Source: a virus | Lineage: Duplodnaviria > Heunggongvirae > Uroviricota > Caudoviricetes | IMG/VR virus record: IMGVR_UViG_2537562192_000006 | Reading direction: 5' to 3' (one strand) | Length of the DNA stretch: 4,423 nt | Part shown: one piece after another, positions 1 through 3,000 of the stretch | Numbering within the stretch: the stretch's first letter is position 1 | Layout of the letters: the number at the start of each line of letters is the position of its first letter | Made by a program: the position numbers

Positions 1-3000
1 GAGAAAAGCCGTAAACGTGCAGATGCAGGTATTGCAGGAGCAATGGCGATGACTGCCATTCCTGTTGTTGAGGGTAAAACGTACTCCTTTGGTATGGCTG
101 CAAGTAACTACCGTGATGAGCAGGCTATCGCAGCAGGTATGCACTTCCGCACCACTGAAAATTCTGCTGTACGTTTGAATGCTTCATGGGATACCCAGAA
201 CGGTTCAGGTGTTGCTGCGGGTATGTCTGTCGGCTGGTAATTTATTTTTTGCGGAGAACGCCAGCCGTGTTGGTTATCGGAAGCGTTCTCCGTCATCCTT
301 CTGTCGCTGAAGACACAGCACAGTCACATTGTTCTTTTTTGTGGTGAGAGTGTGAGTGAAAAAATTCTCCGGTATATGCAGCGTGTGGTGAGAAATTCCC
401 GCAACCCTGAATTTATGAATGAAGTTAAAGACGCCTGCTTTAAAAAGCAGGCGTTTTGTTTTGAGGCACCTGATGGCTTTCTGGTGCTGCGTTCTGTGCT
501 CAGTGCTGATGGTATCCCTTATGTTCTGGTGTTGCTGGGCGTGTGTACGGGGAGTAACAGTGTTGAGCGTTATCTGCCGGAGGTGAAGACATTAACCCGT
601 CTGGCTGGCGGACGTTGGGCTGAATTTCATACGGCAAGGCGGGGATTTATCCGGCTGGGAAAACGTCTGGGCTTTGAGCGAATGCCGGATGATGAGGATG
701 GCTTCATGGTGTTCAGGATAGCGGTCTGACTGCCACAGTTTTCATCATCGTGTTTAAACCAACATTGCAATTCACATTCTGACCCTGCTCCGGCAGGGTT
801 TTTTTATTATCCAGGGGGCCATTATGGGTGGAAGTAAAGGTGGTGGTGATACCAAAGTAAAACCAACAGCAGCGCAAATAGCACAGGAAGAAGTGGCCTG
901 GAAAGGGTGGCAGGATTACAAAAATATCCTCCGCCCGGCTGAAGATAACTTCATGGAAAAGGTCGATGACCTGAACAGTGAGCAGCAGTACGACAATATT
1001 GCTGGCACCACAAATCTGGGGTATCAAAAACAGTTTGGCGAAGCGCGGAAGGAGCTGGCAAGTAATCTCACTCGGTCCGGTGTTGACCCGTCCAGTGGTC
1101 GCTTTAACGCGGTAATGAATGCGAACCAGAGTGATCAGGTAACCGGGCAGATTGACACAACCACACGGGGGCAGGTATCGCAGGCAGATAAGTATGTTGC
1201 CGGGCTACAGGATGTTGCTGCTCTCGGTTCTGGTCAGAAGGCGGATGCGTTACAGAGTTTTAACTCTCTGGCAGACAGCAGTCTGGCAAAAGCTAAATCG
1301 GATGCACAGGCGGCGTTTACGAAACAGCAGGGGCGAGCCTCTCTTGTTGGCGCTGGTCTGGGTGCGGCAGGTGCGTACGCGATGCATAAGGCTGGCGGTA
1401 GCGGAGGAAGTGGCGGTGCTAAAACACCTGGCACTGGCGCTAATGCCATTCAGCATCAGGCTCAGAACTGGAGACTGTGATTATGGAGTACGGTAAATAC
1501 GAAACACTTGCGAGATACGGTTATACCGGAGCAGCCCGCCCTCAGGGGGACTGGCAGACATCCGCAGCGCTGACCCGCCAGCAATACGACGACTGGCGCA
1601 CCAGATATTTACCCCGTGTAGCAAGGCTGGCTGACCTTGGGGAGAACAACAGTCTGATGAATCCACAGCTTGCACGGGTGGGAGGCCTTGCCACTTCCAG
1701 TCTCCGTACAGCGCAGATGGCGCAGGATAACCAGATGGCGAGATACGGGGTAAGCCGCCCGGATAATCCCGACAGTAATACGCTGGGGTTACGTAATGCC
1801 CTGGCAATAGCAGGTGCGAAAAATGGTATCCGTGAAGCCGAACAGGATCGCCAGATGAATATTCTGACGGGGGCTTCTGCACCGGCAAGACAGAAACTGA
1901 GTGTTGGCGGACAACTGGTGGCAGCGTAAGGGGGCAATATGGGATACGGTTTACTGGATATTGCAAATCAGTCGCGGCGTGAGGCATTACAGGGAATAAG
2001 TGACGCAGACAGACGACGCACAGAGATTGAGGCATCAAATAAACAACTGGCTGCTCAACAGAAAGCTCAGAAAAAACAGAATATCAGTACGGGCATTGGT
2101 ACGGGGGCGGCTATTGGTGCATCCGTTGGTGGTCCTGTTGGTGCTGTTGCTGGTGCAGTAATTGGCGGCATTGCAGGCGCTTTGTTTTAAGGAGTGGTGA
2201 ATGAGCGGATTTGCACAGGGGTTACTTGCCGGATTCAGCACTGTTGACCAGGCAATGACCCGTCGTAAGGAGCTTGGTTTGCGAGAAGCACAGCTTGCTC
2301 AGCAACAGAAAAATAACGAGCGCGATTTTGAATTTGCGCAGTCTCAGTTTGAACATAATAAAGACGTTGATCAGCGGAACTTTGATTACAGAGCCAAAGT
2401 TGATGACCGCAATTACACACTGCAGGAAAGGGAGTTTAACGCCAACCAGAATTACCGGAATGCGTCGCTGGGGATGGAACAGCAACGACTCCAGTTGCAG
2501 AAATACAACCAGCGACGGCTTGAGTATAACGATATGCTGGCGCGCGATCAGCCTGTGATGGCGGCGCTGGGAAAAGCGATTGATGCGGGTGACCATGATG
2601 CGGCTTCTCATCTGTTCGGTAAATTATCGGACGCCAATCCGCTTAAGATGATGTCAACGGTAGGCTATGCTGCGAAAGCGGGTCAGGCCGTGAACAACCT
2701 GCAGAAAATCTTTGATGATAAGCCGGACAGGGCGATTGCTTCGCTGAATACCCCGGAAAATCTCGATGTGTTTTCCGGCGTGTTTGCCCCGGAACTACAA
2801 CAGCGTATTGGCATGCCTGATTCAACCGGGGAAAAGACAATAAAAGAGGCCAGGATTGGCAGTATCGTACCGGCGCAGCAGGAAGGGTACGTACTTATTG
2901 GCCTTGATCTCACATACAGCGATGGCTCCACTGCGCATAAACCTGTAACAGAATATGGCAGTGCGCACCCTGATGATCAAAACGTGCTGGCGATACCCGT

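Follow-up and report, generated by a model that had tools for sequence, protein, structure and literature searches.

LEE-negative STEC lack intimin, and because intimin is missing their adhesins are medically interesting. One of these adhesins, the STEC autoagglutinating adhesin Saa (Paton et al. 2001), is reportedly encoded on pO113-type megaplasmids. The Eib family is another group of trimeric autotransporter adhesins (TAAs); in the original records (AF151674-6) its genes lie in a cassette with the order ORF191-eib-ORF156-ORF60, and eaa or L0124 often comes next. Kotaka et al. (Nat Commun 2026, PMC13534694) described EibG-like TAAs that group with Saa and named them 'Yal'. The Yal proteins are EibG-BLAST-positive TAAs of LEE-negative STEC that lack the saddle and the N-terminal domain, and their function is listed as unknown (PMC13534694). 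YalA was reported from the strains KY178 (on a plasmid) and KY180 (on the chromosome) (PMC13534694).

We analysed a stretch of 4,423 nucleotides (the window) from an E. coli STEC prophage, which shows 99.7% identity with strain 2018-166. A first-pass annotation had read its first 240 nucleotides as the anchor of a prophage-borne adhesin. We consider it highly likely that these positions encode the C-terminal translocator of a 398-aa type Vc TAA of the Saa lineage, carried as a prophage moron and likely to act as an adhesin. The features of the window, all on the plus strand, are the following:

1-54, plus strand: end of the coiled-coil stalk and pore-traversing helix (EKSRKRADAGIAGAMAMT), from alignment to Hia 2GR7 and YadA 2LME
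1-240, plus strand: 3' end of the gene for the 398-aa TAA (very probably Saa lineage), 79 codons and a TAA stop, the remainder lying upstream of the window
82-234, plus strand: four predicted barrel beta-strands (about nt 82-111, 118-156, 163-192 and 211-234) with the terminal motif GMSVGW, from the AF2 model and Pfam
241-342, plus strand: 3' flank of the inserted cassette, holding a hairpin at 251-293
343-350, plus strand: right junction of the cassette, where the conserved phage backbone restarts at GGTGAGAG (BLAST matches of phages and E. coli sequences without the TAA start at 343; alignment with P13374)
352-729, plus strand: homologue of P13374 ORF73 and VT2-Sakai orf66, function unknown (PHROG 610, E 1e-68; annotations)
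781-800, plus strand: intrinsic-terminator-like hairpin followed by TTTTTATTAT (terminator scan)
824-3463, plus strand: four tightly spaced late-region ORFs at 824-1480, 1483-1929, 1939-2190 and 2201-3463 (PHROG 611, 596, 594 and 601)
3509-3528, plus strand: hairpin of intrinsic-terminator type before the giant gene, with TTTTTTT after it (terminator scan)
3548-4423, plus strand: 5' end of the gene for a giant (about 2,790 aa) LPD5/LPD38 polyvalent protein, homologue of Sp5 ORF80 (tail formation) (PHROG 616 and 20690; annotations)

The window encodes a YadA-like anchor

Frame 1 of positions 1-240 translates as EKSRKRADAGIAGAMAMTAIPVVEGKTYSFGMAASNYRDEQAIAAGMHFRTTENSAVRLNASWDTQNGSGVAAGMSVGW*, with the stop at 238-240. 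The Pfam family YadA_anchor (PF03895) matches residues 24-79 of this fragment with an E-value of 7.6e-11 (42.4 bits, gathering score 22.7) and the full protein with an E-value of 1.2e-11. The YadA-like anchor is confirmed as real and well past chance. A full-length homologue was aligned with the anchor structures of Hia (2GR7, 3EMO) and YadA (2LME) up to the terminal W, so that the beta-barrel anchor ending in GMSVGW, as first described, stands. Within the Saa-like set, the invariant residues are concentrated in the barrel region of the anchor. An AF2 model (input alignment of 12 sequences, monomer only, mean pLDDT 45, pTM 0.29) places strands at residues 347-356, 359-371, 374-383 and 390-397 of the full protein with low confidence, as well as a helix at residues 287-337, also of low confidence (pLDDT 50-63). 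Predicted from these monomer strands, a trimer would have a barrel of 12 strands. The YadA-like C-terminus, the four beta-strands and the aromatic end (GW) are those of a type Vc protein. NCBIfam returned matches to YadA, BimA and Ata only, all far under the cutoff, and Rfam returned no match at the gathering threshold.

The window carries the last 79 codons only, and the intactness of the gene was judged from the 99.7%-identical genome rather than from the window's own source. In that genome the intact gene (L001:17044-18240) encodes 398 aa, residues 320-398 of which are 98.7% identical to the window anchor. Extending upstream, as the first-pass annotation had suggested, recovered an autotransporter passenger: an N-terminal Sec signal peptide (MKKASKLLLALMPALSLSLFSAGAYA|SG, by inspection), YadA head repeats (YadA_head PF05658, E 1.6e-6) and a coiled coil (the low-confidence helix), the composition of a type Vc passenger. 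A tail-tip-fibre gene lies about 0.7 kb upstream of the adhesin gene, in agreement with the claim that the adhesin is prophage-borne. Neither a non-autotransporter protein upstream nor a chromosomal core adhesin outside a prophage, the two findings named beforehand as evidence against the annotation, was encountered. Between alleles, hypervariability is confined to the N-terminal ~100 residues; the rest of the protein is almost identical, a pattern that would be expected for the exposed tip of an adhesin.

The adhesin is closest to Saa

In a direct BLASTP comparison the anchor shares 79.5% identity with that of Saa, and the entire 398-aa protein is 48-52% identical to Saa in an end-to-end collinear alignment that contains a single copy of the Saa stalk repeat. 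The named Saa proteins are its nearest named relatives (48-53% identity over 96-98% of the length), and the next-best DNA match is plasmid saa, at 73% over the 3' 366 nt. Homology over the full length, the same domain order and the stalk repeat are shared with Saa, whereas a pO113-type plasmid location is not: all 20 near-full-length copies are chromosomal, and the saa-annotated matches among those listed are on plasmids. By homology to Saa, the 398-aa protein would most likely serve in adhesion and/or autoagglutination of LEE-negative STEC and possibly in serum resistance; IgG binding is not expected.

The exact locus is present in 4 of the 13 sequenced strains of Kotaka 2026 (JNEC-KY171, 174, 176 and 202), and the 398-aa protein probably belongs to one of the 'Yal' clades. 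Because KY178 and KY180 are missing from the 20 genomes that match the gene nearly full-length at the DNA level, the lineage of the window is probably the other Yal clade and not YalA. The gene, an ordinary lysogenic-conversion adhesin gene, is already annotated as a YadA-like family protein and included in an existing PHROG, and the lineage is probably covered already, as Yal, by Kotaka 2026.

A moron inserted within the late region

The adhesin gene lies on a cassette of 1,580 bp, the 5' half of which is low in GC (36-40% over the promoter and N-domain versus about 50-55% in the backbone). In short-tailed Stx-type (Sepvirinae) prophages the insertion is clean relative to P13374: the cassette has hok/mokW on one side and the ORF73 homologue on the other, with its left junction at L001:16762/16763. 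A repeat search of the cassette detected no terminal direct or inverted repeats and no IS ends. The locus was found in 20 of 5,426 complete E. coli genomes, compared with 419 for the phage backbone, and by BLAST in 1 of 186 related phage records. Its presence or absence between collinear genes and its deviant composition show that the adhesin gene is a phage moron.

Phage phiSTEC1589-Stx1c carries the adhesin gene; this phage is inducible and short-tailed and lysogenises MG1655 and MC1061 (PMC12029490). Since the cassette lies in a short-tailed Stx-type prophage, the gene can be co-transduced with stx1c. At least one carrier is thus a Stx1c phage that can be induced and can lysogenise K-12, so that the toxin and a putative adhesin can be gained in one transduction.

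The first-pass annotation had placed the adhesin at the end of the prophage late region and had taken the genes that follow for phage-like cargo, and both statements need correction. The gene sits in the middle of the late region, between hok and the module that runs from ORF73 to the giant protein, upstream of tail-formation genes. The last two genes of this module are needed for tail formation in Sp5 (PMC5155283), and the genes after the adhesin are therefore virion machinery and not cargo.

A hairpin directly follows the adhesin stop (251-293; 11-bp stem, fold of -33.5 kcal/mol, z = -2.05), but it has no U tract and is not called by the terminator scan. That scan finds 8 sites in the window versus 4.0 +/- 1.9 in shuffled sequences. 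The first canonical hairpin with a T run is found within the ORF at 352-729 (hairpin 431-454, then TTTGTTTTG), and clean intrinsic terminators lie at 781-800 and 3509-3528. The description of an anchor followed by terminators is therefore right for these last two sites and wrong for the hairpin directly after the stop. The promoter scan, which covered the window and the region preceding the gene, detected no sigma-70 consensus. Because a consensus promoter upstream and a canonical terminator after the stop are both missing, autonomous expression can only be inferred: the AT-rich sequence upstream of the gene may drive its expression in the lysogen, and after induction the late transcript may read through into it under Q antitermination.

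The phage-like coupled operon noted downstream was recovered: the four ORFs at 824-3463 are separated by gaps of 2-10 nt, and all match phage families (E 1.8e-43 to 6.5e-187). The ORF at 1939-2190 encodes a glycine-zipper protein (its Pfam Gly-zipper matches are sub-threshold), and the ORF at 2201-3463 is assigned as homologous to Sp5 ORF79 (tail formation) by its size and position on the VT2-Sakai map and from PMC5155283. In alignments, two +1 insertions (4079 and 4093) break the giant gene in the window, as does a G>A change at position 4098, which produces a TAG stop (4097-4099).

Alternative readings of the locus

The adhesin had initially been read as probably of the Eib type, the immunoglobulin-binding TAAs whose stalk binds IgG Fc or IgA and whose genes close the late region. 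It is indeed a prophage-borne TAA, and the Eib-type arrangement occurs twice elsewhere in the same prophage, around the TAA genes L001:9763-12785 and L001:30821-31858 (the latter adjoining an S6 peptidase). The weak similarity of the 398-aa protein to EibD (31% over residues 59-302; PDB 2XQH, E 3.5e-6) is, however, confined to the generic beta-roll head. The EibD IgG-binding stalk (2XZR) is not matched by the 398-aa protein, whereas a neighbouring control from the same prophage, TAA1 (377 aa), matches it with an E-value of 1.5e-10 and has an EibE-like anchor. The BLASTP comparison that had been proposed was run against authentic EibC, EibD and EibE, the sequences of which were obtained by tblastn against a phage collection: the anchors are 31% (EibC and EibD) and 37% (EibE) identical, far below the value for Saa, and they end in ...NVGVNFEF instead of ...GMSVGW. 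None of 108 relatives is named UpaG or EhaG, and SadA fragments (2YO0) match the generic head only (E 4.3e-4). When a 141-aa piece of EibD served as database query, all matches were partial fragments, with no full-length protein named Eib among them, and the search with TAA1 returned a large 'YadA C-terminal domain' family in which named Eib proteins are absent from the best 120 matches. The neighbours of the gene are hok and the ORF73 homologue, with no ORF191, ORF156 or ORF60 cassette around it, and Saa-like Yal proteins lack the EibG saddle and N-terminal domain (Kotaka 2026, PMC13534694). Neither in stalk and anchor nor in its flanks does the gene resemble the Eib family, and we regard an Eib-type adhesin as highly improbable.

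The position among tail genes (a tail-tip fibre lies upstream, and genes for tail formation follow) and two weaker PHROG matches labelled 'tail' or 'adhesin' (phrog_17426 and phrog_26246) could suggest that the product is part of the virion structure, a trimeric tail fibre or receptor-binding protein whose likeness to a TAA is superficial. A Sec signal peptide together with a C-terminal beta-barrel motif ending in W points instead to export to the host outer membrane. The gene is also missing from ~95% of the genomes and from 185 of the 186 phage records with the same virion module, and because most carriers of the module lack it, phage assembly does not require it; its composition, moreover, is unlike that of the backbone. 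On these grounds the tail-fibre reading was rejected as extremely improbable. A decaying or silent passenger gene, the remnant of a cassette with no current function in the host, is unlikely as well, if somewhat less so. Frameshift variants within the anchor are recorded in databases (P0015 and P0017), many copies in draft assemblies are partial, several genes are frameshifted in the closest prophage (strain 2018-166), the giant gene of the window is itself disrupted, and a consensus promoter was not found upstream of the adhesin gene. Yet an intact CDS is annotated in all 20 complete carrier genomes, the partial copies are mostly contig-end artefacts, and the gene resides on a phage that has kept its capacity for induction and transduction. 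The nearly invariant anchor and stalk and the variable tip in aligned diverse alleles suggest selection.

Proposed function

For the Saa-lineage adhesin, the following steps are proposed from established TAA biology. The precursor would be exported by Sec via its N-terminal signal peptide. Three chains, each contributing the four beta-strands encoded in the window, would be inserted into the outer membrane by BAM as one barrel, with the coiled-coil stalk threading the pore. The surface would then display a small lollipop composed of the hypervariable N-terminal tip, a Saa-type N-domain, the YadA beta-roll head, the neck and one Saa-type stalk repeat.

With the cassette, the lom/hok island of the late region gains a predicted trimer that depends on BAM, covers the surface and has a hypervariable tip. 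Short-tailed Stx phages are reported to adsorb to BamA (Smith et al. 2007). It is conceivable, although we think it very unlikely, that the Saa-like TAA acts for the phage as a superinfection or receptor-masking factor, beyond a putative role as a host-colonisation adhesin. If this were true, the TAA, two Eib/Cla-type TAAs and a SPATE protease would constitute a transducible type V secretion island, remodelling the lysogen surface against host immunity and competing phages and delivered in one step with stx1c.

Comparison with known systems

The adhesin resembles the Eib proteins (EibA/C/D/E/F/G/H) in being a small prophage-borne TAA with a YadA-like beta-roll head, and it resides in the same kind of 933W-like prophage. 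It differs from them in the type of anchor, the flanking cassette and the position in the prophage, and the 398-aa protein has no homology to the Eib IgG-binding stalk.

As a moron, the gene is comparable with lom, bor and hok of Stx phages: each is an optional outer-membrane or envelope gene between conserved late genes. The adhesin cassette shares its non-essential island with lom and hok, and its composition is likewise atypical. In contrast to these lambdoid morons, its product is a type Vc autotransporter and not an 8-stranded OMP, a lipoprotein or a toxin, and its own promoter and terminator are only putative.

The closest system is Saa, with which the protein has in common the N-terminal domain, the YadA head repeat, the neck and the ARIxGDAQTLKSANTYT stalk repeat, as well as the host group, LEE-negative STEC. 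Unlike Saa, which is encoded on a plasmid and has a variable array of stalk repeats, the protein described here is encoded on a chromosomal prophage and has one repeat and a hypervariable tip. An identity of ~50% indicates a paralogous lineage rather than an allele of saa, and PGAP does not use the Saa name here. The point is a modest one, since the gene is already annotated, falls within an existing PHROG and very probably represents a Yal clade of the 2026 paper; the locus is best regarded as a Saa-lineage adhesin travelling on short-tailed Stx-type prophages.

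The anchor and its source prophage

Frame 1 of window 1-240 encodes 79 stop-free residues that end in GMSVGW, with a TAA stop codon at 238-240. Residues 24-79 match Pfam YadA_anchor (E 7.6e-11, 42.4 bits; gathering score 22.7), and the full-length homologue can be aligned, up to its final residue, with solved structures of the Hia (2GR7, 3EMO) and YadA (2LME) translocators. The YadA-like anchor of a trimeric autotransporter adhesin (TAA) read here in the first-pass annotation is real, and its coordinates are as given there. Its proposed carriage on a prophage holds as well. The entire window maps by megablast to E. 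coli chromosomes, best to STEC strain 2018-166 (NZ_CP075632.1; 99.7%, 15 differing positions); matches of any extent occur in 424 of 5,426 complete genomes. From position 343 on it corresponds to the late region conserved among short-tailed Stx phages (Sepvirinae). Matching phage records number 186, P13374, TL-2011c, ArgO145 and Ss-VASD among them, and of these phiSTEC1589-Stx1c alone covers window 1-342 as well.

In 2018-166 the prophage occupies a site between rcsB and rcsD. Downstream of its antiterminator Q, the normal stx position (L008:28238-33016, another part of the same prophage; NZ_CP075632.1 5189249-5194027), no stx is annotated; the genes there are a frameshifted hok/gef, one for a YXWGXW-repeat protein, and the type I R-M pair hsdM and hsdS.

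The intact 2018-166 gene (L001:17044-18240) is annotated as a 'YadA-like family protein' of 398 aa, with a typical Sec signal peptide by inspection (MKKASKLLLALMPALSLSLFSAGAYA/SG), a YadA_head repeat (PF05658) and the YadA_anchor. The AF2 monomer model, of low confidence (mean pLDDT 45), has the long helix expected of a TAA at 287-337 and then four strands at 347-397. Allelic variation is strong over the first ~100 residues of the mature protein and almost absent beyond them. Two database variants, P0015 and P0017, have each lost a single nucleotide close to the AAAA run at 76-79 (window 70-90); the two deletions are independent, lie only a few bases from each other, and each puts the anchor in the +1 frame (…EGKTSPLVWLQV… in one, …EGKRTPLVWLQV… in the other). 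Such variants may be inactivated alleles, or else products of sequencing error.

The adhesin is related to Saa

The gene had also been called probably Eib-type, and this was not borne out. Searched against the database, the full protein returned 108 matches, the first being near-identical E. coli 'YadA-like/hemagglutinin' proteins; the next matches, and the nearest named relatives, are Saa proteins (48-53% identical, query coverage 96-98%), and no Eib protein is among the 108. BLASTP gives the 79 window residues 79.5% identity with Saa (E 4e-43). Against the original ECOR-9 records of eibD, eibC and eibE (AF151675, AF151674 and AF151676), found by tblastn, identity is 31% for EibC and EibD (70 aa aligned, E 5e-5) and 37% for EibE (54 aa aligned). 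Over its full length the protein shares 52% identity with the 386-aa Saa and 48% with the 423-aa Saa, and in a multiple alignment it is collinear with Saa, whose stalk repeat it contains once. Its 31% identity to EibD is confined to residues 59-302, which form the generic head. No match links the Saa-like protein to the EibD stalk fragment 2XZR, and Eib anchors end in ...NVGVNFEF, whereas the window anchor ends in GMSVGW.

The Eib gene arrangement envisaged for this gene is correct for two other TAA genes of the same prophage, not for the window gene itself. Both are seen in L001, the 2018-166 locus, are fully intact in L010, the JNEC-KY174 prophage locus, and stand in canonical Eib context:

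L001:9763-12785 and L001:30821-36218; L010:3772-6781 and L010:24282-28419: Eib-type TAA regions
First further TAA: DUF4376/ORF191, TAA, ORF156, after a tail gene
Second further TAA: TAA, ORF156, S6 peptidase (eaa-like), past the giant gene, where the prophage ends

The neighbouring 377-aa TAA1 (714 database contigs) has an EibE-like anchor, and its stalk matches EibD 2XZR at E 1.5e-10. A single prophage holds three TAA genes and a SPATE-type S6 peptidase autotransporter. In the phrog_10464 profile, the passenger of the Saa-like TAA (L001:17044-18240) accounts for positions 1-340 (E 4.9e-164), and the Eib-type TAA1, not the Saa-like TAA, for positions 340-492. This suggests that phage TAAs joining this passenger to an Eib-type stalk and anchor exist, as would arise by module shuffling.

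A cassette within the late region

Alignment with P13374 places the gene in a clean insertion. P13374 reads ...CACCCGTTT-CA-GGTGAGAG... at the site, and in L001 the 'CA' is replaced by 1,580 bp:

L001:16763-18342: whole cassette
281 bp: AT-rich upstream DNA
L001:17044-18240: Saa-like gene
102 bp: downstream DNA (window 241-342)

A repeat search found no terminal repeats on the cassette. GC is 36-40% in the upstream DNA and the stretch encoding the N-terminal domain; the backbone has about 50-55%. The site is flanked by hok/mokW and an ORF73 homologue, a non-essential island that also houses lom in other Stx phages. The AT-rich DNA ~90-140 nt upstream of the start codon (L001:16906-16960) contains two imperfect direct repeats of 24 nt, TGATTTTAAT[T/A]ATT..., at 31-nt spacing, which may serve as a regulator-binding or H-NS nucleation site.

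Downstream, the genes run in this order:

PHROG 610, 611, 596, 594, 601
Giant LPD5/LPD38 protein, PHROG 616

From size and position on the VT2-Sakai map, we infer that the 420-aa ORF and the giant ORF are homologues of Sp5 ORF79 and ORF80, both needed for tail formation (PMC5155283). Because this module follows it, the Saa-like gene lies midway through the late region, with virion machinery after it, and not at the region's end as first proposed.

Three downstream ORFs have peculiarities. Inside ORF 352-729 (PHROG 610, the ORF73 homologue) lies a strong terminator-like hairpin at 431-454 (tail to 463; ACGCCTGCTT/AAGCAGGCGT, then TTTGTTTTG), also kept in P13374, which raises the question of whether this conserved ORF is translated as annotated. 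An 83-aa ORF (1939-2190), in the phage module beside tail-formation genes, bears the RefSeq label 'bacteriocin', with sub-threshold Pfam scores for glycine-zipper (24 bits, cut-off 29) and Bacteriocin_IIc (21 bits, cut-off 27); it looks like an over-annotated Gly-zipper membrane peptide. In the giant ORF, three differences from 2018-166 and P13374 fall within 20 nt (window 4079-4099): an inserted C at 4079, an inserted G at 4093 and G>A at 4098. Together they close the ORF at TAG 4097-4099, and its coding sequence continues from 4099 in a different frame. The disruption reflects either a true pseudogene, of a gene with a tail-essential Sp5 homologue, or an assembly error.

Distribution and relation to known adhesins

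The phage backbone is present in 419 of the 5,426 complete genomes; the Saa-like gene is sporadic, near full length in 20, all chromosomal, and some strains appear to have more than one copy. At the DNA level, its only further relatives are saa genes on plasmids (73% over the 3' 366 nt). An allele is carried by phiSTEC1589-Stx1c (L002:8029-9240, mis-annotated as 'terminase large subunit'), an inducible, short-tailed phage that lysogenises MG1655 and MC1061 (PMC12029490). The same record (PQ600364.1, 8029-11211) also mislabels the ORF73 and PHROG 611 homologues as 'portal protein', and the 83-aa Gly-zipper ORF as 'N4-family major capsid protein'.

Following established type Vc biology, the protein would be exported by Sec and assembled with BAM into a 12-stranded trimeric barrel, displaying its passenger; by homology to Saa it may act in adhesion or autoagglutination. 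In the lysogen the gene might conceivably be expressed from a promoter of its own, with Q-dependent read-through added after induction. A promoter scan found no consensus promoter upstream of the gene, and the hairpin at 251-293 after the stop is without a U tract.

The Saa-like gene is an ordinary, already annotated lysogenic-conversion gene that has probably been described before. With EibG as query on 13 LEE-negative STEC genomes, Kotaka et al. 2026 gave the name 'Yal' to the clades grouping with Saa, whose function they list as unknown, and 'Cla' to a separate lineage (PMC13534694). Four of these 13 strains (JNEC-KY171, 174, 176 and 202) carry this locus, which makes membership of a Yal clade very probable. 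YalA itself is improbable, since it was reported from KY178 and KY180 (PMC13534694) and neither strain is among the 20 genomes with the gene. TAA1, in turn, may belong to the Cla or Eib lineage of that study.
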